Virus record (IMG/VR): IMGVR_UViG_3300044627_003892
Length of the DNA: 64,000 bases
Reading direction: 5' to 3' (one strand)
From: a virus
Taxonomy: Duplodnaviria; Caudoviricetes
Shown: piece after piece, positions 717-18,009 of the stretch
Layout: each line of letters starts with the position of its first letter
How positions within the stretch are numbered: the first letter of the stretch is position 1
The notes under the pieces: generated by a model
Told to the model about the DNA's origin: nothing
Database searches by the model: none
Seen by the model: only the letters and a program-made list of their open reading frames with translations
Translations under genes and position numbers: made by a program

Positions 717-3700
717 TTATATAAAGTTAAAATTGTTTGCTGTTGTATAAACAAGTCCTAATGTGAATGTTCCACCCGCAGCTCCTGCAGCTCCTGAGGT
801 ACCTGATGAACCAGTAATACCCGATGAACCTGAAGTACCTGATGAACCTGATGTTCCAGATGTACCGTTAACAATAATAGTAACTGCACATACGTCATTT
901 ACTGTAAGTGTTGTATCACCACCATTTGTATATAATGCACCTGTAAACAAATAATCACTACCACTTACACTTACATTGTTGAAGTAGTAAATATCAATTT
1001 TATTTGAACCATTTAAATTAAAAATTAAATATACAATCCCTTGTGTTCCAACTAAGTTTAAAAAATAATCACTTAAATCTGCTGAGTCAGCAGTTACTAC
1101 GTCAAATTTCAAATCATACACCGCTACACCCGCTCCTTGATAAGTAAATTGACCTGAAGCAGGTGCACCTCCTGTCCCACCACCGTATTGGTATTGAAGA
1201 CCACCTTTATTACCTTGACTACCTGATGTGCCTGATGAACCACTTGTTCCTCTTGAACCCGTACTTCCGCTAGACCCCGAACTACCTGAAGAACCCGAAC
1301 TTCCACTAGAACCACTTGTTCCCGATGAACCTGAAGAACCTGAACTACCAGATGAACCTGATGTGCCAGAACTACCTGATGAACCACTTGAACCTGATGT
1401 TCCTGAGCTTCCGCTTGTCCCTGAAGAACCAAAACCTGATGAACCAGATGTTCCACTAATACCATCTAATCCGCTTGTTCCTGATGAACCTGAACCTGAG
1501 CTACCTGATGAACCAGCACTTCCTGAAGAACCGCTAGTTCCACTACTTCCTGTAATACCTGAAGAACCTGAGCTTCCACTTGAACCTGATGAGCCAGAAG
1601 AACCTGATGTTCCTGAACTACCGCTAGTACCCGAAGAACCTGTATTACCGCTTGAACCTGAACTTCCTGAAGAACCGCTAGTTCCTGAGCTACCACTTGT
1701 ACCTGTACTACCCGATGAACCCGAACTTCCTGAAGAACCACTTGTTCCTGATGAACCTGATGTACCAGAACTTCCAGTATTACCTGACGAGCCTGAACTA
1801 CCCGCACTTCCACTTGAACCTGATGTTCCTGAGCTTCCACTTGTTCCTGATGAACCTGTATTACCAGAACTACCACTACTTCCTGAAGAACCACCTGACC
1901 CTGATGTACCCGAAGAACCAGATGTTCCTGAGCTACCACTTGAACCTGAAGTTCCACTCGTTCCTCTTGACCCTGTACTACCAGATGAACCAGAACTACC
2001 ACTAGAACCTGATGACCCACTACTACCTGAAGTTCCTGAAGAACCGCTAGTTCCACTTGACCCAGCACTTCCACTAGAACCTGAACTTCCGCTTGACCCC
2101 GAACTACCTGAAGAGCCTGATGTACCACTTGAACCAGAAGTTCCTGATGAACCACTATTACCCGAAGAACCTGAGCTTCCACTTGAGCCAGAAGACCCTG
2201 ATGTTCCTGATGAACCGCTAGTACCAGATGAACCTGTGTTTCCACTTGACCCTGAACTACCAGCACTTCCTGAAGAACCACTTGTCCCTACTGAACCTGA
2301 AGTACCAGCACTACCGCTAGAACCAGAACTACCTGTACTACCACTTGAGCCTGATGTTCCAGAACTACCACTTGTTCCTGTACTACCCGATGAACCGCTA
2401 GTTCCTGAAGTACCACTTGTTCCTCTTGAGCCTGTACTTCCGCTAGAACCCGAAGACCCACTTGAGCCTGAACTTCCAGCACTTCCTGAAGAACCACTTG
2501 TACCTACCGAACCTGAAGTACCAGCACTACCGCTAGAACCACTACTTCCACTTGAACCAGATGAACCTGACGTTCCACTACTACCAGATGCCCCTGAACT
2601 TCCACTAGACCCTGACGAGCCACTTGAACCAGAAGAACCGCTAGAACCTGAAGTCCCTGATGAACCAGAGCTACCTGATGTTCCGCTACTTCCATTAGCA
2701 CCTGATGTACCAGCAGAGCCAGAACTACCACTACTTCCCGAAGAACCTGAACTTCCACTTGTACCAGATGTTCCCGAACTTCCGTTAACTCCTGATGTTC
2801 CTGAACTACCACTTGAACCTGATGAACCAGCACTTCCTGATGAACCACTTGACCCAGATGTTCCACTGCTTCCATTAGCACCTGATGTACCAGCACTTCC
2901 TGAAGAACCAGTTGAACCTGAACTTCCACTAGAACCACTACTACCTGATGTTCCACTACTTCCATTGGCTCCAGATGTTCCTGATGAACCTGAACTACCA
3001 CTTGAACCCGAACTACCACTTGAGCCAGAAGAACCTGATGTACCAGAGCTACCATTAGAACCAGAAGTTCCTGAAGACCCACTTGAACCTGAGCTACCTG
3101 ATGTTCCCGATGTTCCTGAGGTTCCTGAAGAACCACTAGTACCTCTTGAACCCGTACTACCCGATGACCCTGAACTACCACTACTTCCACTAGAACCTGA
3201 TGTTCCAACAGAACCAGAACTACCGCTACTTCCACTTGAACCAGATGAACCACTTGAGCCAGATGTTCCTGAACTACCATTAGCACCTGATGTACCAGAA
3301 CTTCCAGCACTACCACTAGAACCTGAAGAACCACTAGACCCTGAACTTCCTGATGTTCCACTTGAACCAGAAGAACCTGTACTTCCTGAACTACCACTTG
3401 AACCAGATGTCCCAGTTGAACCTGAACTTCCTGATGAACCAGCACTTCCGCTAGACCCCGAACTACCTGATGTTCCACTGCTTCCATTGGCCCCCGATGT
3501 ACCACTACTTCCTGAGCTTCCAGCACTACCGCTAGAACCTGACGAACCACTTGTACCTGAAGAACCGTTAGTTCCAGATGTTCCCGACGAACCTGAAGAA
3601 CCACTAGAACCTGAAGAACCTGATGTACCCGAAGTACCTGATGTTCCTCTTGAACCAGTACTTCCTGAAGAACCTGAACTACCACTACTTCCTGAACTTC

Positions 3701-6700
3701 CACTCGTACCAGCACTTCCTGATGAACCAGAACTTCCTGATGAACCGCTAGAACCTGATGTTCCAACGGAACCAGAACTACCACTTGAACCAGATGTTCC
3801 TGAACTTCCATTAGCACCTGATGTACCCGCAGAGCCAGATGACCCTGAACTACCACTACTTCCTGAAGAACCACTTGTACCTGAACTTCCGTTAGCTCCC
3901 GATGTACCTGATGAACCACTACTTCCTGAGCTTCCGGATGACCCCGAACTACCTGATGTACCAACAGAGCCAGAACTTCCTGAACTTCCAGTACTACCGC
4001 TAGACCCTGACGAACCACTTGTTCCTGACGAACCTGATGTTCCGCTACTACCCGATGAACCTGAACTACCAGCACTTCCTGAAGAGCCACTTGTCCCTAC
4101 TGAACCTGAAGTACCAGCACTACCACTAGAACCACTACTACCTGATGTACCACTAGTACCCGATGTTCCTCTTGAACCTGTAGAACCTGAACTTCCGGAT
4201 GAACCACTTGAACCAGAACTTCCTGAAGAACCAGATGTACCTGATGTTCCACTATTTCCTGAACTACCACTAGTACCGTTTGTACCATCAACACCACTTA
4301 ATCCTGATGAACCCGAAGTACCAACAGAACCTGAACTCCCACTACTACCCGATGAACCAGAACTTCCTGATGTACCATTTGAACCAGATGTTCCTGAACT
4401 ACCACTAGTTCCTGAAGTACCGCTAGTTCCTCTTGAACCTGTACTACCAGATGACCCTGAACTTCCACTAGAACCCGATGAACCGCTAGACCCTGAAGAA
4501 CCACTAGTTCCACTTGAACCTGAGCTTCCTGAAGTACCTGTACTACCCGATGAACCAGAACTTCCTGAACTACCACTAGAACCAGTACTTCCCGAAGTTC
4601 CTGATGTCCCGCTTGTACCTACAGAACCTGACGTTCCTGAGCTTCCAGTACTACCGCTAGAACCTGATGAACCTGATGTTCCACTACTACCTGATGTTCC
4701 AGTACTTCCACTTGAACCTGAACTACCACTTGAGCCAGAAGAACCAGCACTACCTGATGTTCCTGTACTTCCTGACGAACCACTTGAGCCAGTACTTCCT
4801 GACGAACCAGATGTTCCAACACTTCCGCTTGAGCCTGATGTTCCACTAGTACCTACACTACCTGAAGTACCACTTGTACCCGATGTACCTACAGAACCCG
4901 AAGAACCTGAACTTCCACTAGTCCCCGAAGTACCTACCGAACCACTAGTCCCCGATGTTCCTGATGAACCAGATGTTCCTGACGTTCCGCTAGTTCCTGA
5001 CGAACCAGAAGTTCCACTTGTTCCTCTAGAACCTGTTGAACCAGAACTTCCGCTTGAGCCTGAGCTTCCTGAAGAACCCGTACTACCACTTGAGCCAGAT
5101 GAACCTGAAGTACCAGATGAACCACTTGTTCCACTACTTCCTGAACTACCCGTTGAACCTGATGACCCACTACTACCTGAAGTTCCTGAACTTCCGCTAG
5201 TTCCCGATGTACCTGATGAACCAGAACTACCGCTAGACCCTGAACTTCCACTACTTCCTGATGTACCTGCAGAACCAGATGACCCTGAACTACCACTACT
5301 TCCACTAGAACCTGATGTTCCACTTGTACCAGTACTCCCTGAAGAACCTGATGAGCCACTACTTCCACTCGAACCTGAAGTACCAGTTGAACCCGAACTT
5401 CCACTTGTACCAGTACTCCCTGATGACCCCGCACTACCACTTGAGCCAGAGCTTCCAGATGTTCCACTAGTACCTACTGAACCTGAAGTTCCTGAAGAAC
5501 CAGACGAACCTACTGAACCTGACGTTCCTGAAGTACCAACACTTCCAGATGAACCTGATGTTCCGCTAGTTCCTCTAGAACCTGTTGAACCAGAACTTCC
5601 TGATGAACCTGAAGTTCCACTACTCCCTGATGAACCCGCACTACCACTTGAGCCAGAGCTTCCAGATGTTCCACTACTACCTGAAGTACCAACAGAACCG
5701 CTAGACCCTGACGAGCCAGCACTACCTGATGAACCTGAAGTTCCGCTTGTACCTACTGAACCCGAACTACCTGAAGAACCTGAACTTCCACTTGAGCCAG
5801 CAGAACCTGATGTTCCTGAAGAACCATTAACCCCTGATGTACCAGCACTTCCCGCAGAACCTGATGAACCAGTACTTCCTGAGCTTCCAGCACTACCGCT
5901 AGAACCTGACGAACCACTTGTTCCTGATGAACCGCTAGTTCCAACACTACCACTTGAACCTGATGACCCACTTGAACCAGAAGTTCCAGATGTTCCTACA
6001 CTTCCACTTGTACCTGCAGAACCTGAACTTCCACTACTTCCTGATGTTCCCGAACTACCTGAAGAACCGGATGTACCTACACTACCACTAGTTCCTGAAG
6101 TACCGCTAGTTCCTCTTGAACCTGTACTACCTGAAGAGCCAGATGACCCAGAACTTCCTGAAGAACCGCTAGAACCTGAACTACCGCTAGTTCCGCTTGA
6201 CCCTGATGAACCGCTAGTACCTGATGAACCGCTAGTACCTGATGTACCAACACTACCACTTGAACCAGAAGAACCTGAACTACCACTAGTCCCTGATGTA
6301 CCAACACTTCCTGAACTTCCAGCACTACCGCTAGAGCCTGAAGAACCGGATGTGCCTACACTTCCCGATGAACCACTACTTCCGCTTGACCCAGATGTAC
6401 CAACAGAACCAGAACTACCACTTGTTCCAGCACTACCACTAGAACCGCTACTACCTGATGTTCCTGAAGAACCGCTAGTTCCTGTTGAACCTGAACTTCC
6501 AGATGACCCAGTACTTCCCGAAGAGCCGCTAGTACCAGATGAACCCGTACTACCACTTGAGCCTGAACTTCCTGATGTACCACTTGTACCTACTGAACCT
6601 GAGGTTCCACTTGTTCCTACACTTCCAGATGAACCTGAACTTCCACTTGAACCAGACGAACCTGAATTACCACTAGTTCCGCTTGACCCTGTACTTCCGC

Positions 6701-9700
6701 TAGAACCTGAACTTCCACTTGAACCAGAAGAACCGCTAGTACCTACGCTACCTGATGACCCTGATGTTCCCGAACTACCACTAGAACCTGAAGTTCCAGA
6801 ACTTCCTGAACTACCAGTCGAGCCAGAACTTCCTGATGAACCACTACTACCGCTAGTACCTGAACTACCCGTACTTCCAGATGAACCTGAAGTTCCCGAT
6901 GTACCTACACTACCACTTGAACCTGATGTTCCAGTACTTCCTGACGTACCACTTGTCCCAACACTTCCTGATGTACCACTAGAACCTGATGTTCCTGAAG
7001 AACCGCTAGTTCCTCTTGAACCTGTTGACCCTGAACTTCCTGATGAACCAGAACTTCCACTTGAACCGGATGAGCCACTTGTACCTGATGAACCGCTAGT
7101 TCCAACACTTCCACTTGAACCAGAACTTCCTGAACTTCCACTTGTACCAGATGTACCTGACGAACCTGATGTCCCAACAGAACCAGAACTTCCTGAGCTT
7201 CCAGCACTTCCGCTAGAACCTGACGAACCACTTGAACCTGATGTACCTGAACTTCCGTTAGCACCTGATGTACCCGACGAACCACTTGAACCAGATGACC
7301 CCGTACTTCCACTACTTCCTGAAGAACCAGAAGTTCCAGAACTTCCGCTTGTTCCTACACTACCACTAGACCCTGAAGAACCACTTGAACCAGATGTTCC
7401 ACTAGTTCCAGAAGTACCAACACTACCACTTGAGCCAGATGTTCCGCTAGTTCCTACACTACCTGAAGAACCTGATGTTCCACTAGTACCTACACTACCC
7501 GATGAACCTGATGTTCCAACACTACCACTTGAACCTGAACTACCTGAAGAACCAGAACTACCTGATGTTCCTGAGGTTCCAGTACTTCCACTAGAACCTG
7601 CACTTCCTGAAGAACCACTTGAACCTGATGTACCAGAAGTTCCAACGCTACCACTACTACCTGAACTTCCACTTGAGCCGGTAATACCTGAAGTTCCACT
7701 TGAACCTGAACTACCTGATGAACCGCTAGTCCCTGTTGAACCAGAGGTTCCACTAGTTCCTGTACTTCCGCTAGAGCCTGAACTACCGCTAGTACCTACA
7801 CTACCCGACGTACCAGAGCTTCCTGAAGACCCTGTACTTCCACTTGTACCTGATGTTCCAGTTGAACCACTTGTTCCTGAAGTCCCCGTTGAACCTGATG
7901 TACCACTAGTTCCTGTACTTCCACTTGAACCGCTAGTTCCTGAAGTACCCGATGTTCCTCTTGAACCTGTAGAACCTGAACTTCCGGATGAACCACTTGA
8001 ACCAGAACTTCCTGAAGAACCAGATGTTCCTACACTTCCACTTGTACCAGCTGAACCTGAACTACCAGAACTTCCTGAAGACCCACTAGAACCTGATGTT
8101 CCTGAAGAACCACTTGTACCTACTGAACCTGAACTTCCTGAAGAGCCACTTGTACCTACTGAACCTGAACTTCCAGCACTACCACTAGACCCTGAACTTC
8201 CACTGCTTCCATTGGCTCCCGATGTACCTGATGAACCAGAAGTTCCGCTAGAACCTGATGAACCAGAAGTTCCCGAAGTGCCTGATGTTCCACTTGTACC
8301 ACGACTTCCTGTAGAACCAGAACTTCCTGATGAACCAGTACTACCACTACTTCCTGACGTACCACTAGTACCACTTGAGCCAGATGTTCCTGAAGAACCT
8401 GAGCTTCCAGCACTACCACTACTTCCACTTGTTCCCGTAGAACCTGAACTACCAGCACTACCGCTAGACCCTGAACTTCCACTACTTCCTGATGTACCAG
8501 CCGAACCACTTGTTCCTGTAGACCCAGACGAACCACTTGAACCCGAACTTCCTGAAGAACCACTTGAACCTGTTGAGCCAGAAGAACCTGAGGTTCCTGA
8601 ACTACCACTTGAGCCACTAGTTCCAGTACTTCCCGAAGAACCTGAAGTACCTACACTTCCTGACGAGCCAGATGTTCCTGAACTTCCAGTACTACCACTT
8701 GAACCCGAAGTACCACTTGTACCTGAGCTTCCAGCGCTTCCGCTAGAACCTGACGAACCACTAGTTCCTGAAGTACCCACACTTCCCGAACTTCCACTTG
8801 AACCTGAAGACCCAGTTGAACCCGATGTTCCACTTGTACCTGAACTTCCACTATTTCCTGACGAACCGCTAGAACCTGACGTTCCACTAGTACCCGAAGT
8901 TCCTGATGTACCAACACTACCAGATGAACCTGAACTACCTGATGTTCCTGAGGTTCCATTAGTGCCGCTTGAACCAGATGTTCCTACACTTCCTGAGCTT
9001 CCACTAGTACCTGAAGTACCTACACTTCCTGAGGAACCAGATGTTCCGCTTGTACCTACAGAACCACTTGTTCCTGAAGAACCTGACGTACCAGTAGAAC
9101 CACTTGTTCCTGAAGAACCTGACGTACCAGTAGAACCACTTGAACCTGTGCTACCGCTAGAACCTGACGTTCCTGAGCTTCCAGCGCTACCGCTAGAACC
9201 TGATGAACCACTTGTTCCAGATGTTCCGCTAGTTCCTACTGAACCAGACGTTCCACTAGTTCCAACAGAACCAGAACTTCCTGATGTTCCGCTAGTTCCT
9301 CTTGAACCCGTACTACCTGAAGAACCAGAACTTCCCGATGAACCGCTAGTACCTGAACTACCTGTTGAACCTGAACTTCCACTTGAGCCAGATGAACCTG
9401 AAGTACCACTTGTTCCTACACTTCCACTTGTACCGGCAGAACCAGAACTTCCCGATGAACCACTTGTTCCTGATGTGCCAGAAGTTCCAACACTTCCACT
9501 AGAACCAGATGTTCCGCTACTTCCTGAACTACCTGAAGACCCACTTGAACCTGAAGTTCCGCTAGTACCTGTAGTTCCTGATGAACCACTAGTACCTGAA
9601 GAACCTGATGTCCCACTTGTTCCCGCAGTTCCTGAAGAACCTGAAGAACCTGAAGTTCCACTTGAACCGCTAGTTCCCGATGTTCCTGTTGTACCTGAAG

Positions 9701-12700
9701 TTCCGCTTGTACCTGACGAACCTGAAGTTCCACTTGTTCCTGTAGTACCGCTTGTGCCTGATGAACCTGACGTTCCACTCGTACCTGAAGAACCACTAGT
9801 TCCCGATGTTCCTGTTGTTCCGCTAGTTCCTGAGGAGCCTGAAGTACCACTTGTACCTGAACTACCCGATGTTCCACTTGTTCCTGCAGTACCACTAGTT
9901 CCTGACGAACCGCTAGTACCACTCGTTCCTGATGAACCTGATGTTCCTGAAGTACCACTTGAACCTGAAGTTCCGCTAGTACCTGAAGAACCACTTGTTC
10001 CGCTTGTACCTGTTGTACCTGATGTTCCTGAACTTCCCGATGTTCCGCTAGTTCCCGAAGAACCACTTGTACCTGAGGTACCTGTAGTCCCACTTGTTCC
10101 TGAAGAACCTGATGTACCACTTGTACCTGTTGTCCCTGATGAACCACTAGTTCCAGAAGTTCCACTTGAGCCTGATGTTCCGCTTGTTCCTGAAGAACCT
10201 GATGTCCCACTTGTTCCACTTGAACCGCTAGTTCCCGATGTTCCTGTTGTACCCGAAGTTCCTGATGAACCTGAAGTTCCGCTTGTACCTGTTGTTCCGC
10301 TAGTACCTGAAGAACCACTTGTACCTGACGAACCTGAAGTTCCACTTGTTCCTGAAGAACCACTAGTTCCCGATGTTCCTGTTGTACCCGAAGTTCCTGA
10401 ACTACCCGAAGTTCCGCTAGTCCCTGTTGTTCCACTTGAACCTGATGTTCCACTTGTTCCCGAAGTACCACTTGAACCTGACGTTCCGCTAGTTCCTGAT
10501 GTTCCACTTGTTCCTGTTGTACCGCTAGTTCCTGAAGAACCTGAAGTACCACTAGAACCTGAAGTTCCGCTAGTACCACTTGTTCCTGATGAACCTGAAG
10601 TTCCACTAGTACCTGTAGTACCTGATGTACCACTAGAGCCACTTGTACCCGATGAGCCTGAAGTACCACTTGTACCCGTAGTGCCTGATGTACCACTTGA
10701 ACCTGAAGTTCCGCTTGTTCCTGACGAACCTGAAGTTCCGCTAGTACCTGTAGTACCTGATGAACCGCTAGTACCACTTGTTCCTGAACTACCTGAAGTA
10801 CCACTTGTTCCTGTAGTACCGCTAGTTCCTGAAGAACCTGATGTACCACTCGTACCTGAAGAACCCGAAGTTCCGCTAGTACCCGATGAACCTGAAGTTC
10901 CACTTGTTCCTGTAGTACCGCTAGTTCCTGACGAACCCGAAGTTCCGCTAGTTCCTGATGTTCCTGAAGAACCGCTAGTTCCACTTGAACCCGATGTTCC
11001 ACTCGTACCCGATGAGCCTGAAGTACCACTTGTTCCTGTAGTACCACTTGTTCCCGATGAACCTGATGTTCCGCTTGTGCCTGAAGAGCCTGATGTTCCG
11101 CTTGTTCCCGTAGTACCTGATGTCCCACTAGAACCTGAAGTTCCGCTAGTCCCTGATGAACCCGAGGTACCTGAAGTACCACTTGTTCCTGAAGAACCTG
11201 ACGTACCACTCGTACCTGTAGTTCCAGATGTGCCTGAAGAACCACTTGTACCACTACTTCCTGATGTTCCTGAAGAACCGCTAGTACCCGATGTACCCGA
11301 GCTACCTGATGTACCGCTCGTACCCGATGAGCCTGAACTACCACTTGTACCTGAACTACCACTTGAGCCAGATGTACCATCACTACCACTAGACCCTGAA
11401 CTTCCTGACGTGCCACTTGAACCTGAAGTTCCTGATGAACCAGTTAAACCAGAACTACCTGATGAACCTGAACTACCAGTAGAACCTGATGTACCACTAC
11501 TTCCTGAAGAACCTGTTGTTCCACTTGTACCACTAGTACCACTAGTACCAGCACTTCCTGAAGAACCTGAAGAACCTGTTGTTCCACTTGTACCACTAGT
11601 ACCTGCACTTCCTGAAGAACCTGATGTTCCACTAGTACCATTAGTTCCTGAAGTACCCGAACTTCCCGAAGAACCAGATGTACCTGTAGTCCCACTAGTT
11701 CCTGATGTTCCTGAAGAACCAGAACTTCCCGATGAACCACTTGTTCCTGTTGTTCCACTAGTACCTGAACTGCCACTTGAACCATTTACCCCACTACTAC
11801 CTGAACTACCACTTGAACCACTAATTCCTGAAGAACCTGATGTTCCCGATGAACCACTTGTTCCGCTTTCACCTGATGTTCCTGACGAACCACTTGTCCC
11901 GCTTTGTCCTGATGTTCCACTTGAACCACTTGTCCCGCTTTGTCCTGATGTTCCACTTGAACCTGTTAATCCACTACTACCTGACGAACCTGTTGAGCCA
12001 GAGCTACCACTAGTACCAGTACTACCTGATGTACCCGATGAACCACTTGAACCTGAACTTCCCGATGAACCACTTGAACCTGAAGTTCCTGAACTTCCGC
12101 TTGTACCAGAACTTCCCGAAGAACCTGACGTTCCACTTGTTCCCACACTTCCTGAAGAACCTGAGGAGCCAGATGTTCCTGATGTACCCGAAGAACCTCC
12201 AGTACCTGATAGTCCTGATGAACCACTTGTACCTGATGTTCCACTTGCACCATCAACACCATTAATACCTGATGTTCCAGCACTACCTGAACTACCGCTA
12301 GTTCCAGTACTTCCCGAAGAACCGCTATCCCCTGATGAACCAGACGTTCCACTTGTTCCTGATGTACCCGCAGAACCAGAACTACCTGATGAACCAGAAC
12401 TACCTGAAGTTCCACTTGTACCTGCTGAACCTGAAGAACCAGAGCTACCTGAAGAACCACTTGTACCCGCAGAACCTGATGTTCCAGAACTACCATTAGA
12501 ACCAGATGCCGTAATACCTGTTACAGAAATAATAGTTCCATCACTATTATATAATTCTAATGTACTTGTACCTGAAAAATAAGTACCACCCGTTAATTCA
12601 GTACCTTGAGCAAAAACTCTCCATCTCGCATTTTCTCTTGTAACACCACTAACACCTTCAATAGTTGAGCCTGTCCAAGCATTAATAAATGCCTGACCTT

Positions 12701-13124
12701 CAGGTGTATTATTCTTTATAATAGTTTCGTAAGATAATTGAGTTACAGAATTAGCACTTACTGCAGCATCCCATAAATCATTGTAATTGTCTATTTGATA
12801 TTGATATGCCGTTTCAGTTTCATTAACCCAAACAATCATACCCAATCTTCTTCTACCCGAAGAGAAATTGTCAGAATTTAAAGTTAAATATGTTGGAGAA
12901 AATGTACCGTTACCAATGTTAATATTAATAGGTATATTATTAACACTTAATTGTTGTTGTCCTTGCCCACTAAATGTTAAACCTAAATTAGTAAGGTATG
13001 CCGCCTCTTGCCATCCACCAACATTTAAAACATTAAAATTGGTTCCGTATGGACTTGTTCTCGCTACACTGAAAGGTCCTGTAATTTGGGACGCACTTAT
13101 TGGATTTTGATACGGTATTGCCAT
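717..13124 (-). CDS. giant Gly-X-Y (Gly-Ser/Thr-Ser) repeat, collagen-like tail/capsid fibre protein (4135 aa)
   Basis: About 205-aa N-terminal domain paralogous to 21935..24169; about 3770 aa of Gly at every third position; about 110-aa globular insert, short second repeat and hydrophobic C-terminal tail. Synonymous codons vary while the amino-acid pattern is kept, indicating a real coding frame. Confidence 0.9.
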   Translation of the reverse strand: MAIPYQNPISASQITGPFSVARTSPYGTNFNVLNVGGWQEAAYLTNLGLTFSGQGQQQLSVNNIPININIGNGTFSPTYLTLNSDNFSSGRRRLGMIVWVNETETAYQYQIDNYNDLWDAAVSANSVTQLSYETIIKNNTPEGQAFINAWTGSTIEGVSGVTRENARWRVFAQGTELTGGTYFSGTSTLELYNSDGTIISVTGITASGSNGSSGTSGSAGTSGSSGSSGSSGSAGTSGTSGSSGSSGSSGSAGTSGTSGTSGSSGDSGSSGSTGTSGSSGSAGTSGINGVDGASGTSGTSGSSGLSGTGGSSGTSGTSGSSGSSGSVGTSGTSGSSGSSGTSGSSGTSGSSGSSGSSGSSGSSGTSGSTGTSGSSGSTGSSGSSGLTGSSGTSGQSGTSGSSGTSGQSGTSGSSGTSGESGTSGSSGTSGSSGISGSSGSSGSSGVNGSSGSSGTSGTTGTSGSSGSSGSSGTSGTSGTTGTSGSSGSSGTSGTNGTSGTSGSSGSAGTSGTSGTTGSSGSSGSAGTSGTSGTSGTTGSSGSSGTSGSTGSSGSSGSSGLTGSSGTSGSSGTSGSSGSSGSDGTSGSSGSSGTSGSSGSSGTSGTSGSSGTSGTSGSSGTSGSSGTSGSSGTSGTTGTSGTSGSSGTSGTSGTSGSSGTSGTSGSSGTSGTTGTSGTSGSSGTSGTSGSSGTSGTTGTSGTSGSSGTSGTSGSSGTSGSSGTSGTSGTSGSSGTSGTTGTSGTSGSSGTSGTSGSSGTSGTSGSSGTSGTTGTSGTSGSSGTSGTSGSSGTTGTSGTSGSSGTSGTSGSSGTSGTTGTSGTSGSSGTSGSSGTSGTTGTSGTSGSSGTSGTSGTSGSSGTSGSSGTSGTTGTSGTSGTSGTSGSSGTSGTSGTSGSSGTTGTSGTSGSSGTSGTTGTSGTSGSSGTSGTSGSSGTSGSSGTSGTTGTSGTSGSSGTSGTTGTSGTSGSSGTSGTSGSSGTSGTSGSSGTSGTSGSSGTTGTSGTSGSSGTSGTTGTSGTSGSSGTSGTSGSSGTSGTTGTSGTSGSSGTSGTSGSSGTSGTSGSSGTSGTSGSSGTSGTAGTSGTSGSSGTSGTSGSSGTSGTTGTSGTSGSSGTSGTSGSSGTSGTTGTSGTSGSSGTSGTSGTTGTSGTSGSSGTSGSSGSSGTAGTSGTSGSSGTSGSSGTTGTSGTSGSSGSSGSSGSSGTSGSSGSVGTSGTSGTSGSSGSSGSAGTSGSVGTSGTSGSSGSSGSSGSTGSSGTSGSSGSSGSSGSTGSRGTSGTSGSSGSVGTSGTSGSVGTSGTSGTSGSSGSSGSAGSSGTSGSSGSTGSSGSTGTSGSSGTSGSTGTSGSSGTSGSVGTSGTSGSSGSVGTSGTSGSSGSVGTSGSSGTNGTSGTSGSSGSSGSVGTSGTSGTSGTSGSSGSSGNSGSSGTSGTSGSTGSSGSSGSSGSVGTSGTSGSSGSSGSAGSSGTSGTSGSSGSTGSSGTSGSSGSVGTSGSSGSTGTSGSSGSSGTSGSSGSTGSSGSSGSSGSSGSSGSTGTSGSAGTSGSSGSSGSSGSAGSSGSTGTSGSSGSAGSSGSSGTSGSSGTSGTSGSSGSTGSSGSSGSTGSRGTSGTSGTSGTSGSSGSSGTSGSSGTSGANGSSGSSGSSGSAGSSGSVGTSGSSGSSGSVGTSGSSGTSGSSGSSGSSGSSGSAGTSGSVGTSGSSGSSGSSGSSGSSGSTGSRGTSGTSGTSGSSGSTGTSGTSGSTGTSGTSGSTGTSGTSGSTGSSGSSGTSGSVGTSGSSGSSGSTGTSGTSGSTGTSGSSGSSGSSGTSGITGSSGSSGSSGSVGTSGTSGSSGSSGSAGSSGSTGTSGTSGSSGSSGSSGSSGSVGTSGSSGSVGTSGTSGSSGSVGTSGTSGSSGSVGTSGTSGTSGSSGSSGSSGSVGTSGSSGTSGSSGSSGSTGSSGSSGSSGTSGANGSSGTSGSSGSSGSSGSAGSSGSSGSVGTSGSSGTSGTSGSSGSSGSSGSVGTSGSSGTSGSSGSSGSSGSSGSSGSTGSRGTSGSSGTSGSSGTSGSVGTSGTSGSTGTSGSSGSVGTSGTSGSSGSTGSSGTSGSSGSSGSSGSTGSSGSSGTSGSSGSSGTSGSSGSVGTSGSSGSSGSSGSSGSTGSSGTSGNSGSSGSSGSSGSSGSVGTSGTSGSVGTSGTSGSSGSSGSTGSSGTSGSSGSTGSSGSSGSTGTSGSSGTSGSSGSSGSAGTSGSSGSVGTSGSSGSSGSSGSVGTSGSSGSSGSAGSSGSVGTSGTSGSSGSSGSSGSVGTSGTSGSSGTSGSSGSSGTSGSSGSSGSSGSSGSSGSSGSTGSRGTSGTSGTSGSVGTSGSSGSSGTSGSSGSSGSAGTSGSVGTSGTSGSSGSSGSSGSVGTSGSSGTSGSSGSSGSAGSSGSTGSSGSAGSAGTSGVNGSSGTSGSAGSSGSSGSSGSSGSVGTSGTSGSSGSAGSSGSSGSVGTSGSSGTSGSSGSSGSAGSSGSSGTSGSSGSSGSTGSRGTSGTSGSSGSVGTSGTSGSVGSSGSSGTSGSVGTSGTSGSSGSSGSAGSSGSTGTSGSSGSTGTSGSSGSSGSSGSSGSTGTSGTSGSSGSSGSSGSSGSAGTSGSSGSSGSSGSSGSSGTSGTSGSSGTSGSSGSSGSTGSSGSSGTSGSSGTSGSSGSSGSTGSSGSSGSSGSSGSTGSRGTSGTSGSSGTSGTSGTSGSSGTSGTSGSVGTSGTSGSSGSSGSVGTSGTSGTSGSVGTSGTSGSSGSVGTSGSSGSTGSSGSSGSTGTSGSAGSSGSSGSSGSSGSTGTSGSSGTSGSSGSSGSTGSSGTSGSVGTSGTSGTSGSTGSSGSSGSSGSSGSTGTSGSSGSSGTSGSSGSSGSSGSSGSSGSSGSTGSRGTSGTSGTSGSSGTSGSNGTSGSSGSSGSSGSSGSVGTSGSSGLSGVDGTNGTSGSSGNSGTSGTSGSSGSSGSSGSSGSSGSTGSRGTSGTSGTSGSSGSSGSAGTSGSVGTSGSSGSAGSSGSSGSSGTSGSSGTSGSSGSSGSTGSSGSSGSVGTSGSSGSSGSSGSSGSSGTSGANGSSGTSGSSGSSGSSGSSGSAGTSGANGSSGTSGSSGSSGSVGTSGSSGSSGSSGSSGSAGTSGSSGSSGSSGSSGSTGSRGTSGTSGTSGSSGSSGSSGSSGTSGTNGSSGTSGSSGSSGSAGSSGSSGTSGANGSSGTSGSSGSSGSAGSSGSSGSTGTSGSSGSSGSTGSSGSSGTSGSSGSSGSSGSSGSAGSSGTSGANGSSGTSGSSGSSGSSGSSGSSGSVGTSGSSGSSGSSGSSGSTGSRGTSGSSGTSGTSGTSGSSGSSGSSGTSGSNGSSGTSGSSGSSGSSGSSGSSGSSGTSGANGSSGTSGSSGSSGSSGSTGSSGSAGTSGANGSSGTSGSSGSSGSAGSSGSSGSSGTSGVNGSSGTSGTSGSSGSSGSSGSSGSAGTSGANGSSGTSGSSGSSGTSGSSGSSGSSGSSGSSGSSGASGSSGTSGSSGSSGSSGSSGSAGTSGSVGTSGSSGSAGSSGSSGSSGSSGSTGSRGTSGTSGTSGSSGSTGTSGSSGTSGSSGSTGSSGSSGSAGTSGSVGTSGSSGSAGSSGSSGNTGSSGTSGSSGTSGSSGSSGSSGSSGNSGSSGTSGSSGTSGSSGSSGSSGSSGSSGSAGSSGTSGSSGTSGSSGSSGSSGSSGSSGSTGSRGTSGTSGSSGSSGTSGSSGTSGSGGSSGSSGSSGNTGSSGTSGSSGTSGSSGSAGSSGSSGNTGSSGTSGSSGTSGSSGSSGSSGSTGTSGSSGTSGSSGSSGSSGNTGSSGTSGSSGTSGSSGSSGSSGSSGSSGITGSSGTSGSSGSAGSSGSSGSGSSGTSGLDGISGTSGSSGFGSSGTSGSSGTSGSSGSSGSSGTSGSSGSSGSSGSSGTSGSSGSSGSSGSSGSSGSTGSRGTSGSSGTSGSQGNKGGLQYQYGGGTGGAPASGQFTYQGAGVAVYDLKFDVVTADSADLSDYFLNLVGTQGIVYLIFNLNGSNKIDIYYFNNVSVSGSDYLFTGALYTNGGDTTLTVNDVCAVTIIVNGTSGTSGSSGTSGSSGITGSSGTSGAAGAAGGTFTLGLVYTTANNFNFI
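1203..12503 (-). repeat. coding 9-bp-period Gly-X-Y repeat tract (GSS/GTS/GST/GSA/GSV/GTT/GAN), about 1250 triplets
   Basis: Directly visible in translation and as a degenerate cc(t/a)gaa/ccactt/cctgat periodicity on the + strand; register breaks seen only near 1420-1500 (GSG, GFG). Confidence 0.97.
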
Positions 13125-13153: not shown

Positions 13154-14362
13154 TTAGGTTTTATACACCCCTTTGAAATAATAATTATTTTTATCAGGAA
13201 GTTTTGGAGGTAACAATCCATCGTTAGACAAGTATAATACTCTATAAATCCCCGCAGGTATTGCTCCACCTGGAGTTATTGTAATATCCCCAACCGAAAT
13301 TTTAGGGTCAGGAGTTGCTAAAATATCAAAGTCACAAGGTTGTGATTGATAACCAACATTTACTGTCATGTTATTTAAACTTTCATCAACACCCGCAAGT
13401 GGTATCCAAATCGTATACATGTACTGTAAACTAGTGTTAATAACACTATTATCAACTTCAATTGTTTCAAAAGTATATTGGTTAATTAAACATCCAAATC
13501 TATCGTTAATTGTATTTGAAAATTGATTTATCGCACCTTTTAAATTTGTAGGTTTAACAAAGTTTCCTGTTCCACCTGTAAATCCTGAGTATGATGCGTA
13601 TTTGTTCATCATATAACTGTAGTTTGGACTTGTTGGTAATGGAAGTGCTCCCGAATTACCCCATCCGTACCAATTAACACTAGTATCAGGTGTTATACCG
13701 TCCGATAAGTAATACATATAACTTCCTAATCCATATAACGAACCACTTCCCGAAGAATCTTGCGGTTCCGCAAATACGTAAGCGTAATATAGAGGTGTTG
13801 TAATTGATGGTGTTGGGGTAAATGTTGGTGTTGGTGTAGTTGTTGGCGTAGGTGTTGATGTTGCTGTCGGTGTTAAAGATAGAGTTGGTGTAACACTTGG
13901 AGTAATTGATGGTGTTGGAGTTGGTGTTGCCGGTAGAGCAGGTGCGTTACAACAAGGTCTATCAATAATGTAAGGATTATTAGTCGGATAAGAGTAAGAG
14001 TTTAAACTAAAACTACTAAGAACACTTACATAAATTTTTTGAGGTAGTGGTATAATAACAATACCCTGAGATGATTGTTTTAAAAACTGAACTAAAAACT
14101 TACCTTCATTTTTTGTTTCTCTACTTGTGAATTGATAGTTCACATAATAAGTAATATCTAAAGGATTAACAGTAGACGCACTTGTTGTAATATAACATTC
14201 TTTAGACGCTACAACATATTTCTTATTAAATTCGTCATATACCGAAATTAAAATTGTATTACCCGAAATATTTTCATTTAAACCAAAATCACTTCTCCCG
14301 TCTTTTGATATCTCAACTTGGAAAACTGGTAACGTTGAATTTTTCTTAATAAACCATTCCAT
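13154..14362 (-). CDS. virion protein: BppU-like N-terminal domain, Pro/Thr linker, C-terminal domain paralogous to 24179..25183
   Basis: Start moved from the track's 14389 to ATG 14362 (MEWFIKKNSTLP) because it aligns with the start of the upstream paralog (MEFFINKGATLP); [15 protein letters not shown] linker. Confidence 0.7.
   Translation of the reverse strand: MEWFIKKNSTLPVFQVEISKDGRSDFGLNENISGNTILISVYDEFNKKYVVASKECYITTSASTVNPLDITYYVNYQFTSRETKNEGKFLVQFLKQSSQGIVIIPLPQKIYVSVLSSFSLNSYSYPTNNPYIIDRPCCNAPALPATPTPTPSITPSVTPTLSLTPTATSTPTPTTTPTPTFTPTPSITTPLYYAYVFAEPQDSSGSGSLYGLGSYMYYLSDGITPDTSVNWYGWGNSGALPLPTSPNYSYMMNKYASYSGFTGGTGNFVKPTNLKGAINQFSNTINDRFGCLINQYTFETIEVDNSVINTSLQYMYTIWIPLAGVDESLNNMTVNVGYQSQPCDFDILATPDPKISVGDITITPGGAIPAGIYRVLYLSNDGLLPPKLPDKNNYYFKGVYKT
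13795..13935 (-). repeat. coding Pro/Thr (mucin-like) linker
   Basis: [45 protein letters not shown]; boundaries approximate. Confidence 0.9.
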
Positions 14363-14363
14363 A

Positions 14364-14732
14364 TTAAATAGATACGTAACTATTACCAATTTTTATCGTT
14401 AGTTTTTCTCTGATTGGTAAAATATAAGTTCCTGTATCAGTGATAAAAACAAACTCTCCTTCATAAAGTCCCTCTCTACTTGTATCGCTTGAAGTGAATT
14501 TATAATAAACATAGTATTCTGTCTCAGCATTTGGGTCAATAAATGTCTTTTCAACAAACCCTCCTTTCTTATTCAGAATTTTGTAACCCCCTGTTTTAAC
14601 ATCTATCATGGAAAAATAAATCAACGAGTTTTCTATCAGTGACATAAACTCTGTTATGTCAGCAATACCATCTTTAACCACTTGCATTTTAAGAACAGGC
14701 AGTGTTGCACCTTTGTTAATAAAAAATTCCAT
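14364..14732 (-). CDS. stand-alone BppU-like (baseplate upper protein N-terminal type) Ig-fold adaptor (122 aa)
   Basis: F.IxKxxTLP...YxFTSxDTxxEGxYxGEF...ILP pattern recalled for BppU_N-like phage domains; paralog of the next gene's N-terminus. Confidence 0.55.
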   Translation of the reverse strand: MEFFINKGATLPVLKMQVVKDGIADITEFMSLIENSLIYFSMIDVKTGGYKILNKKGGFVEKTFIDPNAETEYYVYYKFTSSDTSREGLYEGEFVFITDTGTYILPIREKLTIKIGNSYVSI

Positions 14733-14761: not shown

Positions 14762-16432
14762 TCAACATTCTTTCCTTAAATTACTATCATAATGTTCAAA
14801 TCTATTATGTTCGGTAGGTGTGAGTAATAAAATACCTGGTTTTAATTTACCTTTAATTGTGTTTTGGAAGTTGTGAGACATTAAAGTTTGTTCATACGGG
14901 TGTTGATATTTTGTCTCCAAATAACATTTATAACTCCCACTTTTTGAAAGAATTATCGGCCAATTACACAAATAGATTTCCCCTGACGCATAAGGTAAAC
15001 CCTTATGTGTTTTTATCTCGTTGAATTTTGTTTTTGGAGCGTTCGGGTCTAATCCCTGTTGAGGTAGTTTTGGATTTTTTGGCCAATGTTGTTCTCTGAA
15101 ATTTTGTGGTACATTATACCAACTCCATTGAGTACTATTATCACCATAAAACTCTGAAAAATTTAATTTTAAAAAATCAAAGTTTTCTTTATTAACTATC
15201 TCTAAACTTTTTTGATATAGATTACTTGCATACCTATTAAACCCATTTCTACACACTTCATTTTTTTGTGAATAAAAAAACATATCATCCTCAAAGAATA
15301 ACATATAGTCCAACCCTGTTTCATCAAAATGTTCCGCAGTCCATTGTCTTCCACCTGTAATACCTATGTTATCTTTTTTAATATGTTCAAAATCATATTC
15401 TTTACAAAGTCTCAAGTATTCTTCTGTTGTTGATAGGTCAGTTGAGTTATCCAATAAAAATTTCTTTGGTCTGTCTAAGAAATCCCTATCATATTCAATC
15501 ATAGATTTAATTAATGTTTCAAATTGTTTTGGAGAATTGAATGTTATTACATACAATGCAACTTTATCCATATCTAAGTCATTTTGAATTTTAACAAACT
15601 CTGTCTTTTTAACTAAAACATCATCTTTTAAATCCTCAAAGAATTTTCCAAATAAACCATTATATTCAATTTCAAAATAATTTATATATTCACTTAACTT
15701 ATAAACCATTATTGAAAATATTGACTCCTCAGTTCCCATATACCCACTTGATAATGTATCATTCAATAGGTTATAGTATTCACCATTCATCTGTGATATG
15801 GTTTCTTTTGGTCCCCCAAAAAACCCACCTCGAGCAACTTTCTTCACATCATCTTCAGCCCATTCATTAATCTTTGGATATGAAAATCCGTGTATCTCAT
15901 TACTTGCGTCGTATGGAAAACAAACAAATGTAAACTTATCAATATACTTACTTAAATTATTTAAAACCTTATCGTGTGTGAAATATCCGGGATGAACAGT
16001 ATTTGTAAGACCCGCATCAATCCAAAATAAAAACTCTGAATTAAATCTATCAAAAATCCTTGCGTCGTTTAATAAAAACATTTTTGACATAACAAGTGGA
16101 TTATACATTTCTAATCTACCTTGTGTTGATTCCTTTAACCAACCTGATTGATTATACCATTCGGGATTGTTTCTGATTTGTTGTATTTTATTATAAAAGT
16201 CATTTTCAACAAACCAACTTTTATCTCTTAAAATAAATTGTGTATTACTTTGGTCTCTTTTTTCCCAAACAAAATCTTCCAATTCTTTTTCACCAAAAAT
16301 TATTAAGTTTTCTTCAACTTTTAATAGTTGTTCAAATTTTTCTAAATAATGTGAAAAAGAACGAGACCAACCTTCTTCAAGATTTTCTCTACCAATATTC
16401 CACAATCCTGTAACTAATGTAATATTACTCAT
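14762..16432 (-). CDS. two-domain glycosyltransferase: HtrL/YibB-like N-terminal domain plus GT-A (GT2-like) C-terminal domain (556 aa)
   Basis: N-terminal TLVTGLWNIGR, FWIDAG, GGFFGG, GTEESI; C-terminal LLDNSTD, NIGITGGRQ, YMLFFEDD (DxD-type). Confidence 0.7.
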   Translation of the reverse strand: MSNITLVTGLWNIGRENLEEGWSRSFSHYLEKFEQLLKVEENLIIFGEKELEDFVWEKRDQSNTQFILRDKSWFVENDFYNKIQQIRNNPEWYNQSGWLKESTQGRLEMYNPLVMSKMFLLNDARIFDRFNSEFLFWIDAGLTNTVHPGYFTHDKVLNNLSKYIDKFTFVCFPYDASNEIHGFSYPKINEWAEDDVKKVARGGFFGGPKETISQMNGEYYNLLNDTLSSGYMGTEESIFSIMVYKLSEYINYFEIEYNGLFGKFFEDLKDDVLVKKTEFVKIQNDLDMDKVALYVITFNSPKQFETLIKSMIEYDRDFLDRPKKFLLDNSTDLSTTEEYLRLCKEYDFEHIKKDNIGITGGRQWTAEHFDETGLDYMLFFEDDMFFYSQKNEVCRNGFNRYASNLYQKSLEIVNKENFDFLKLNFSEFYGDNSTQWSWYNVPQNFREQHWPKNPKLPQQGLDPNAPKTKFNEIKTHKGLPYASGEIYLCNWPIILSKSGSYKCYLETKYQHPYEQTLMSHNFQNTIKGKLKPGILLLTPTEHNRFEHYDSNLRKEC

Positions 16433-17300
16433 ATTTAATATCCTCTAACGCCTTGTAAAAACTTTTATTTATTGTAAAATAATCCTCAGGTAGACCTGGA
16501 GGCCCATTTGTTTCATGCCACCATGTTTCAAAATAGAACATTTTAAACATATCAATATAATTTTGATACATTAATGATAAAATCTGTTCTTCAAACCATA
16601 GCCCTTTGGTGTCCTCAACTATTTCTTTAAGGTTCTGTTCAAACACCTCAACTAATTTTATAAAATTATTTTTTTCACCCCCAAAAATACCCCCAATAAT
16701 ATGTAATGAATTATCATATATTTTATAAAACTTCGGTGGGACAGTACCACTCCAATAATTCCTAACATTATCTTTTCCAATAATTAATATTTTATCATCA
16801 CTTTTATTTATTAATTTATTTAAAAAATCATTATCAAAAAAATGACTGTTGTAGTACCCTTGGTATTCGTCATTATGTTCCAAATATTTGTCGGGTAGTA
16901 ATCCACAATGTGATAATCCAGCATCTATCCAATAATAATAATCATATGACATATCCTCATTTAAGAACCAAAAAAACTTGTTATACTGTATTTCAAAACA
17001 TCTATCACCAGTTTTAACTGACTCAACATTTTTAAAATTTTTAATTAAATTAAAATGATTACTATCCTCTAAATTAAATCCAACAATCTGTAATTGATTT
17101 TCAGAAATATTATTTTCAGAATAAAAAAAATGTTTTAGTTGTTCAATTTCTTCATTACTTGTATAACAAACAAAATTAGCGTTTGTCATTCTTAACAATG
17201 ATATTAGACTCCAACGATAGTGATTATCTCTATTTTGTCTTCCACCATAATCAGTTCCATTTAAATTAGAGTATATTGCGGTTATAAATTTAACTTTCAT
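16425..17300 (-). CDS. HtrL/YibB-like putative glycosyltransferase (291 aa)
   Basis: FITAIY, YYWIDAGLSH, IIGGIFGG, EEQILSL; the same motif set as the N-terminal domain of the neighbouring 556-aa protein. Confidence 0.65.
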   Translation of the reverse strand: MKVKFITAIYSNLNGTDYGGRQNRDNHYRWSLISLLRMTNANFVCYTSNEEIEQLKHFFYSENNISENQLQIVGFNLEDSNHFNLIKNFKNVESVKTGDRCFEIQYNKFFWFLNEDMSYDYYYWIDAGLSHCGLLPDKYLEHNDEYQGYYNSHFFDNDFLNKLINKSDDKILIIGKDNVRNYWSGTVPPKFYKIYDNSLHIIGGIFGGEKNNFIKLVEVFEQNLKEIVEDTKGLWFEEQILSLMYQNYIDMFKMFYFETWWHETNGPPGLPEDYFTINKSFYKALEDIKYE

Positions 17301-18009
17301 ATTTTAATATTTGATTGTTATTATAATCCATATATTCTGATGGTATTTTTACAGGTGAGTATCCATTCCAATTATATGTTTGAGTATAAAAATTGTTATA
17401 AACATCGTGTGACACATCTGAATAAGAACTTCGTTGAGGAGCGATTGGTAAATTTGGACAATAACTTTGGAAATTAGGGTATATTACTTTAGCAAGGAAC
17501 CCATCTATCGGATAAAAATAATTTCCGTCATGGAACTTTTCCTCCGAAATTTTAAACATCTCATCATATATTTTTTCATCGTATATTAGAATGTTTGTCG
17601 CAAAAGTTTCGGTTAAATAATCATGTTTTTTTTCAGGTAACTTTGTTAAGTCCAATAATAAATCACAATCATCACTAATGTTAACATGTCTATTTAATGT
17701 TGGTGATAGATTTAATACATAATAATTTAAATCGTTCATTTTTAATTCAATCTCTTCCAATAGTTTTTTTGAATACGGCATAAAGACACAATCATCTTCA
17801 ATAACCATAACTTTATGGTAACCTCTTTCTTTAGCAATTTTGATGATTTCTAAATGAGATAAAGTACATCCCATATATCCATTCATATCAATAGCTTTAA
17901 AAATTTCAAAGTCCCAAGACATGTATTTCATTTCTTGGGTTATTTCATTTAGTCTCTCAGGTCGTTTTTCTAAATTGATTACAAATTTTGGTATGTCTAT
18001 AAATCTCAT
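17290..18009 (-). CDS. glycosyltransferase family 25-like (239 aa)
   Basis: FVINLEKRPERL, GCTLSHL and VMVIEDDC are the characteristic GT25 (Lex2B/LgtB-like) motifs. Confidence 0.85.
   Translation of the reverse strand: MRFIDIPKFVINLEKRPERLNEITQEMKYMSWDFEIFKAIDMNGYMGCTLSHLEIIKIAKERGYHKVMVIEDDCVFMPYSKKLLEEIELKMNDLNYYVLNLSPTLNRHVNISDDCDLLLDLTKLPEKKHDYLTETFATNILIYDEKIYDEMFKISEEKFHDGNYFYPIDGFLAKVIYPNFQSYCPNLPIAPQRSSYSDVSHDVYNNFYTQTYNWNGYSPVKIPSEYMDYNNNQILKYES

Follow-up and report, generated by a model that had tools for sequence, protein, structure and literature searches.

We have analysed a 64,000-nucleotide (nt) stretch of viral DNA (IMG/VR virus record IMGVR_UViG_3300044627_003892; this whole stretch is called the window below), which comes from an uncultured jumbo myophage of lake water/freshwater, and found that it encodes a giant fibre protein, P0001, built around 1255 nearly uninterrupted and proline-free Gly-X-Y triplets. 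In our favoured interpretation, to which we give somewhat better than even chances, P0001 would form a homotrimeric collagen-type virion fibre, with an N-terminal domain as its anchor, a flexible stalk of ~1.1 μm, a small distal domain, O-glycans added by enzymes encoded next to it, and a role in long-range contact with the host. The observed basis for this interpretation consists of the triplet periodicity, the selection acting on Gly, the location within a module of structural genes, an N-terminal domain (N-domain) shared with other proteins, the modular build of the relatives, the adjacent glycosyltransferase genes and the variation in tract length.

Anatomy of the fibre protein

Two giant, overlapping open reading frames (ORFs) are present in this region, one on the minus strand (717-13124, 4135 amino acids (aa), ATG start) and one on the plus strand (1228-12582, 3784 aa, GTG start). 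It is the minus-strand frame that translates as the Gly-X-Y protein, and every other gene of the window (~30-odd) lies on the minus strand as well. The plus-strand frame was considered as a gene and rejected: it consists of Pro/Glu/Leu/Val repeats, has both of its ends inside the repeat, lacks any flanking or non-repeat domain and runs opposite to every neighbour. It is a shadow ORF, not a gene. As the reverse complement of the tract stays open for 3784 codons, such a sequence can easily mislead gene callers and the choice of strand. The initial annotation had located the repeat correctly at 1203-12503 and gave no strand; the gene is on the minus strand. The parts of the gene are as follows.

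717-13124, minus strand: giant fibre gene P0001, 4135 aa, 339 kDa per chain, ATG start
12504-13124, minus strand: N-terminal domain, aa 1-207, candidate virion anchor or adaptor, 45% identical to the P0003 N-terminus
1488-12503, minus strand: 1224 uninterrupted Gly-X-Y triplets, aa 208-3879, Pfam PF01391 at 456-464 bits
1197-1487, minus strand: tract end, with a 2-aa break, 6 triplets, a second 2-aa break and 25 triplets
867-1196, minus strand: 110-aa beta-rich domain near the distal end, aa 3977-4086
768-866, minus strand: 11 more Gly-X-Y triplets, aa 4087-4119, weak Pfam Collagen match
720-767, minus strand: conserved 16-aa C-terminal peptide, FTLGLVYTTANNFNFI

The tract had been described as nearly uninterrupted over ~3770 aa, and it indeed holds 1224 uninterrupted triplets plus 31 more, or 3769 aa. 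The triplets amount to 1255 in the main tract (1224 + 6 + 25) and to 1266 when the distal 11 are included. The two register breaks, of two residues each, are found at aa 3880-81 (window 1482-1487) and aa 3900-01 (window 1422-1427), which is where breaks had been noticed before (near 1420-1500). If the tract forms a collagen helix, with a rise of 0.286-0.29 nm per residue, its contour length would be 1078-1093 nm, in agreement with the ~1.1 μm proposed at the outset.

The residues at X and Y were said to be almost only Ser and Thr, with no Pro and few charges, and a full count bears this out. Within the 1224-triplet run, X is Ser in 730 cases (60%) and Thr in 458 (37%), adding up to 97%, with 36 other residues, and Y is Ser in 992 (81%), Thr in 94 (8%), Val in 52 (4%), Ala in 47 (4%), Asn in 20, Arg in 13 and another residue in 6. 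The X position is Thr-rich at aa ~508-1107 and Ser-rich elsewhere, and Y is ~80% Ser throughout. Altogether, the 3769-aa tract contains 2329 Ser and Thr residues, 21 charged residues (0.6%) and no Pro. The analogy with Riftia cuticle collagen that had been drawn from 'Thr at Y' does not hold, since Thr is found mainly at X and Y is 81% Ser.

One fixed motif, GSTGSRGTSG, which recurs at a spacing of 87-333 aa in the C-terminal two thirds of the tract, accounts for every one of its 14 Arg residues. Seven copies of this motif are present in the relative L001, two in the examined part of L005 and none in more distant relatives. It may be a functional site or the edge of an ancient super-repeat, and the 14 Arg sites provide built-in trypsin probes.

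The Pfam Collagen model PF01391 matches the tract with 456 and 464 bits per 1000 aa against a cut-off of 27.2, a match that rests largely on Gly periodicity, and PHROG tail-fibre and collagen-like minor-tail families match it too. The X/Y residues that stabilise members of the collagen family, namely Pro/Hyp or many charged/polar pairs as in Scl2, are replaced here by Ser/Thr. Sequence matches in the PDB (animal collagens and a designed 'fibril' protein) were discarded, since they reflect Gly periodicity alone.

Glycine is under strong purifying selection

Codon changes were counted over ~590 aligned triplets of the window and two relatives, L001 and L005. At the Gly codons, 65 changes were synonymous and a single one was non-synonymous. 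The corresponding numbers were 36 and 33 for the X codons, and 43 and 28 for the Y codons. These alignments show that purifying selection on Gly is strong, whereas the residues at X and Y drift within the small hydroxy and aliphatic types. Such Gly conservation is the signature expected of a packed structure with Gly in its core, and of all observations it weighs most against a purely disordered tether; because Gly is selected, an ordered collagen-type stalk is favoured over a random coil. Together with the PF01391 score far above cut-off, the selection on Gly also marks the repeat as more than a chance pattern.

End domains and modular relatives

The first 207 residues of the fibre share 45% identity with the N-terminus of the 744-aa protein P0003, so that the N-domain is encoded twice in the window, at 12504-13124 and at 23600-24169, both on the minus strand. 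Among 1.8 billion cluster representatives the domain was found in 203 clusters, always starting from residue 1, in proteins of 105-2196 aa. When the best 150 of these 203 clusters were inspected, 143 had fewer than 10 Gly-X-Y triplets and carried quite different C-terminal parts. Among 5.8 billion sequences there is just one protein of 2274-7237 aa with this domain, and it is not collagen-like. The invariant residues are P8, G36-G37, D85, G90-R91, W150 and W168. Since this domain is common to P0003 and ~200 clusters with many different distal modules, it is probably a virion anchor, that is, an adaptor for docking onto the particle.

Neither the N-terminal nor the C-terminal domain of the fibre matches a PHROG or Pfam family, and the N-domain has no match among the NCBIfam models either. 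Its AlphaFold2 model reached a predicted local distance difference test (pLDDT) score of 84. A Foldseek search of this model against the PDB gave no match at E 0.001 or better, and the only match in BFVD was an uncharacterised homologue from an uncultured phage. The VIA-align candidates for the N-domain (phage tailspike N-terminal parts and collagen XV/XVIII trimerisation domains) were dismissed as within noise, with Z values of 3.7 or lower.

At the other end, the 110-aa domain can be aligned over its full length, at 17-26% identity, with domains of ~115 aa that lie between Gly-X-Y tracts in relatives. Its AlphaFold2 model is of low confidence (pLDDT 63); the best VIA alignment of this model (Z 6.2), to a tail protein of phage Sf11, scored no higher than those to unrelated helicase domains. 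A prediction of aa 3925-4135 as a three-copy trimer scored 0.30 against a mark of 0.32, which speaks neither for nor against a trimer. The most conserved C-terminal feature is the peptide FTLGLVYTTANNFNFI, which also ends relatives that lack the 110-aa domain. It is a candidate chain-registration or tip element.

The same peptide occurs in a further setting in the relative L035, whose contig carries a second fibre gene (2159-10069, plus strand) downstream of the one that encodes the N-domain fibre. This second fibre has a 1086-aa non-collagen N-terminal part, which looks tailspike-like by its sequence, followed by ~500 triplets, and ends in the same C-terminal peptide.

Other relatives (L009, L022, L026 and L005 + L033) resemble 'beads on a string', with domains of ~83, 115 and 170 aa that alternate with Gly-Ser/Thr-Ser tracts of 30-1168 triplets. 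In these proteins the Gly-X-Y tracts stay in register on either side of the folded domains.

Ordered stalk or disordered tether

The most serious alternative, which we nevertheless regard as unlikely, is a disordered, mucin-like and heavily O-glycosylated tether or brush used for adhesion or shielding, with no triple helix at all, in which Gly would serve for flexibility or as part of an acceptor motif. A tract with 2329 Ser/Thr residues, no Pro and almost no charge would suit such a brush, as would the glycosyltransferase genes adjoining the fibre gene, the Pro/Thr linkers in neighbouring virion proteins and the free variation of tract length among strains. However, a random coil has no need of a Gly that goes unreplaced in 1224 consecutive triplets, with 65 synonymous changes against one replacement, even if the demands of an acceptor motif could mimic a strict Gly periodicity. 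Mucin-type PTS domains are, moreover, normally rich in Pro and without fixed periodicity, whereas this tract is free of Pro and has a strict three-residue period, and the relatives hold their register across every tract that flanks a folded domain.

The length of the tract

An inflated assembly had been named as a danger for a tract of this kind, and the repeat analysis, the orthologues and the read depth answer it largely, although not fully. The DNA of the tract is no simple repeat: it makes use of all four Gly codons and six Ser codons, and the arrays detected by Tandem Repeats Finder are all degenerate, at 60-80% identity. Exact internal repeats reach 84 nt at most, with none of 85 nt or longer and no k-mer repeated at k = 99, and there are no internal duplicates of at least 300 nt above 75% identity. 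An assembler loop would leave long, near-identical copies; none are present, which disfavours such a loop. Repeated 31-mers number 233, against 2.2 expected under random synonymous re-coding. A trace of past duplication thus remains, and since this excess comes without long near-identical copies, the expansions look old and diverged.

Independent assemblies in IMG/VR show how much the length varies. Four contigs from four metagenomes have end domains identical to those of the window and 698-700 triplets (proteins of 2429-2435 aa), and a 4766-aa orthologue with 1431 triplets, 1168 of them uninterrupted, was assembled on three contigs from different metagenomes, one of which is 240,759 bp long. 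Aligned with the 2435-aa allele of L001, the window tract is collinear, at 88-97% identity and with several separate indels, a pattern that looks like diverged length alleles rather than a loop. The comparison of repeat lengths across relatives that had been suggested earlier therefore gives ~700, 1266 and 1431 triplets among close strains: tract length is evolvable.

Four metagenome runs from lakes contain unique pieces of the tract (300-620 nt) that match it perfectly and are as deeply covered as the single-copy DNA on its flanks. No Logan contig or read bridges the tract in these four runs, so its length is neither confirmed nor refuted there.

It is against this background that one may ask whether the gene is real and the length or order of the window tract is partly a product of assembly, such as a chimera between paralogues or between strains that occur together, in which case the real fibre would be shorter, for example the 700-triplet form. 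We consider this improbable. It would account for the contigs from four metagenomes with identical ends and 698-700 triplets, for the 12 of 28 related contigs that break within the tract, and for Logan contigs that cover it only in 300-620 nt pieces with hundreds of alternative joints. It fits poorly with the absence of exact repeats of at least 85 nt (or of any at k = 99) and of near-identical internal duplications, with the collinearity to L001 at 88-97% identity interrupted by separate indels, with the unique tract pieces at flank depth in four runs, and with a still longer orthologue (1431 triplets) that was assembled three times independently. That tracts of more than 1000 triplets exist is well supported; the exact count of 1255 is as assembled here, without independent verification. 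Genes of this kind break short-read assemblies and also yield a giant shadow ORF on the opposite strand, and are therefore under-represented in protein databases.

Genome context and glycosyltransferase genes

The G+C content of the window is ~30%, compared with 49% in the tract, and a related contig of 240,759 bp has a CheckV completeness of 82%. The genes identified in the window include those for baseplate wedge proteins, a Hoc-like Ig protein, a virion structural protein, ribonucleotide reductase and a DnaB-like helicase; there are no tRNA genes in it. The genes upstream of the fibre gene are as follows.

13154-14389, minus strand: P0154, ~402-411 aa, Pro/Thr linker between two domains, directly upstream of the fibre gene
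14762-19250, minus strand: glycosyltransferase cassette of four genes, 1.6-6 kb upstream of the fibre gene, comprising the next four entries
14762-16432, minus strand: HtrL_YibB + GT-A fusion
16425-17300, minus strand: 291-aa ORF, no family match here, HtrL-like motifs only according to an earlier sequence-only note
17290-18009, minus strand: GT25-like
18006-19250, minus strand: GT60-like, PF11397 'GlcNAc' (polypeptide GlcNAc-transferase family), with DSH and FHGEE motifs
19320-20183, minus strand: PA14/GLEYA lectin-like protein
20331-21965, minus strand: LamG / virion structural protein
21935-24169, minus strand: short paralogous fibre P0003, 744 aa, with the same N-domain, 8 + 34 Gly-Ser/Thr-Ser triplets and a different C-terminal domain

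The GT60-like enzyme matches PF11397 with 229.6 bits (cut-off 21) and contains the motifs QIDSHMRF, with the DxH metal-binding site, and FYFHGEE. By tblastn, the HtrL-glycosyltransferase fusion and the GT60-like gene were both detected at 97-98% identity in all 13 close relatives (L001-L013), and the other two cassette genes were undetected in these relatives at the coverage threshold used. A GT60 gene is also present on the contig of the more distant L026. The GT60-like enzyme alone has relatives in cultured phages, at 45-47% identity, namely in the jumbo phages XacN1 and Xoo-sp13 and in two Stenotrophomonas phages. The 3313-aa ORF325 near the GT60 gene of XacN1 was considered as a similar fibre and set aside, as it is not collagen-like.

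Stabilisation by glycans, as proposed by the initial annotation, gains support from the GT60-like, the GT25-like and the two HtrL-like genes a short way upstream of the fibre gene; the context of the XacN1 homologue leaves this part of the proposal ambiguous. On the strength of this gene arrangement, the fibre is probably O-glycosylated by the adjacent enzymes.

The gene for P0154 is immediately upstream of the fibre gene in all tract-bearing relatives (41-94% identity), including those in which it is only 41-58% identical, and it keeps this position even where the glycosyltransferases are absent from the fragment of the relative. P0154 has no match in Pfam, PHROG or NCBIfam, and an Atlas feature search returned unnamed viral clusters only, with scores below 0.9. 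Its true start is probably at window position 14362, as the Atlas record begins at residue 10. The protein may be a chaperone or a docking partner of the fibre. At window 13817-13823, 12-nt insertions in its Pro/Thr linker differ among lake runs, a linker length polymorphism of co-occurring strains.

A Hoc-like virion protein (25210-27354, minus strand) contains SprB repeats and CarboxypepD_reg-like domains. These domains, along with the 30% G+C content and the lake origin, are a weak hint at a Bacteroidota host. A megablast search with 11 kb of flank and tblastn searches with both end domains gave no match among GenBank phages. In metatranscriptome runs only 6-18% of the words sampled from the 5′ part of the fibre gene were present, which gives no evidence of expression.

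Proposed structure and function

The initial annotation offered three structural readings of the tract: a glycan-stabilised triple helix, a polyproline-II bundle and a mucin-like tether. Sequence cannot settle among the three. An ordered stalk on a virion fibre is favoured because Gly is under selection, because the gene belongs to a structural module, because the N-domain is common to the paralogue P0003, and because the relatives carry folded domains in register with their tracts. The trimer, the triple helix, the sugars, the place of the fibre on the virion and its function are inferences.

In the collagen-type model, the N-domain (~205 aa) would dock the fibre on the particle; P0003 and numerous further fibre or spike proteins begin with this domain as well. 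The 3769-aa Gly-(Ser/Thr)-Ser tract would fold as a homotrimeric triple helix, which in the absence of imino acids would adopt the 10/3 form and give a thin, flexible thread with a contour length of ~1.08 μm. At its distal end, the 110-aa beta-rich domain, the 11 triplets and the 16-aa peptide would be candidates for chain registration or host contact. With no Pro and almost no charge in the tract, the helix would have to be stabilised by hydration of the Ser/Thr residues, and further by O-glycans that the GT60-like, GT25-like and HtrL-like enzymes would add in the infected cell. The likely task of such a fibre would be to reach host cells or their surface layers from a distance in dilute lake water, in a first contact that is weak and multivalent.

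Several observations weigh against this interpretation. Pro is absent from the tract and its charged residues number only 21, and host-guest data give Ser/Thr triplets a low triple-helix propensity, so that an unmodified helix might be unstable. No trimerisation element was recognised, and no convincing fold relative was found for either the N-domain or the 110-aa domain. In XacN1, the cultured phage with the closest homologue of the GT60-like enzyme (47%), that gene adjoins those for DNA polymerase and a carbamoyltransferase, with no such fibre seen nearby; therefore, the enzymes may have another substrate. Three more distant relatives lack GT60 on their contigs, which are fragments. Strains whose N- and C-terminal parts are identical to those of the window have only 700 triplets, and therefore no particular length seems to be required. 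The lack of bridging Logan sequences in the four lake runs, and the 12 of 28 related contigs that stop inside the tract, belong on the same side.

A non-collagen ordered Gly-X-X fold, either a polyproline-II/polyglycine-II bundle as in the snow-flea antifreeze protein and the phage S16 gp38 tip, where Gly faces the core as well, or a silk-like beta structure, would agree with a Gly-rich sequence that has small side chains only, and is nonetheless very improbable, since such bundles are made of short strands (~10 residues) joined by turns and the tract runs through 1224 triplets without a turn element, Gly-Gly or Pro, its only two 2-residue breaks both lying near the distal end.

The collagen-type model can be taken one step further, to a helix of ~1.1-1.2 μm without proline or charge that would be held only by Ser/Thr hydration and O-glycans and would work as a length-tunable fishing line; this stronger version is tentative and, in our view, well short of an even chance. 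If true, no collagen-type helix outside annelid cuticle would be longer, the fold would prove to need neither imino acids nor salt bridges, and a fibre used in this manner would widen the capture radius several-fold beyond the size of the phage. A thread three to ten times as long as the virion would also change adsorption models for dilute water.

Comparison with known systems

A search of the literature for giant or proline-free collagen-like phage fibres found no paper. A 2025 paper on freshwater 'moraphages' describes four core glycosyltransferase families and never mentions collagen. Virion O-glycosylation by phage glycosyltransferases has been demonstrated experimentally for short C-terminal extensions of mycobacteriophage capsid and tail-tube subunits, and is reported for these tags only (Freeman et al. 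2023, PMID 37329881, as cited in PMC12619734). The likeness lies in phage glycosyltransferases that act on the phage's own structural proteins; in the present case, however, the target would be a giant collagen-like fibre and is predicted from genes.

Among the closest parallels are the collagen-like tail fibres of phages and prophages (PHROG 1806, 5073 and 6320; the EPclA type of E. coli O157:H7, PMC3368898), which also have a Gly-X-Y stalk between non-collagen ends and are encoded in a structural module. The features of that class, namely structural-gene neighbours, a shared N-terminal domain and a distinct distal end, are all found here at the level of genes. Those fibres, however, have tens to ~100 triplets with Pro and charges, whereas P0001 has 1255, no Pro and 0.6% charged residues, and it thus exceeds typical phage fibres in length, as the initial annotation had proposed.

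The BclA hair on the exosporium of Bacillus anthracis/cereus, like the BclA proteins of C. difficile (PMC8968730; PDB 1WCK), is another collagen-like filament with many hydroxy amino acids. Dedicated enzymes O-glycosylate it, and its length is set by a triplet number that varies among strains; here too, glycosyltransferase-like genes adjoin the fibre gene and the length varies. In contrast, BclA is built of Gly-Pro-Thr with Thr at Y, has fewer than ~100 triplets and carries a C1q-like trimer domain, whereas P0001 has Ser at Y and no Pro and is more than 10 times longer. A C1q-like domain was not recognised in the fibre (110-aa model at pLDDT 63; best alignments at Z 6.2 or lower and mixed).

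The collagens of Riftia and annelid cuticles form triple helices of 1.5-2.5 μm, in which glycosylated Thr at Y takes over the role of hydroxyproline. These are Pro-containing extracellular proteins of animals with Thr at Y, whereas Thr in P0001 is mainly at X (37%), and no homology is implied.

Taken together, the distinctive point of this fibre is its extreme length. It offers collagen biophysics a natural sequence of 1255 triplets with no proline, almost no charge and a Gly register under selection; if the tract folds, it would extend the known rules of triple-helix stability and allow a direct test of stabilisation by Ser/Thr glycans. The variation among near-identical strains (700, 1266 and 1431 triplets) suggests, in addition, that the reach of the fibre is an evolvable trait.

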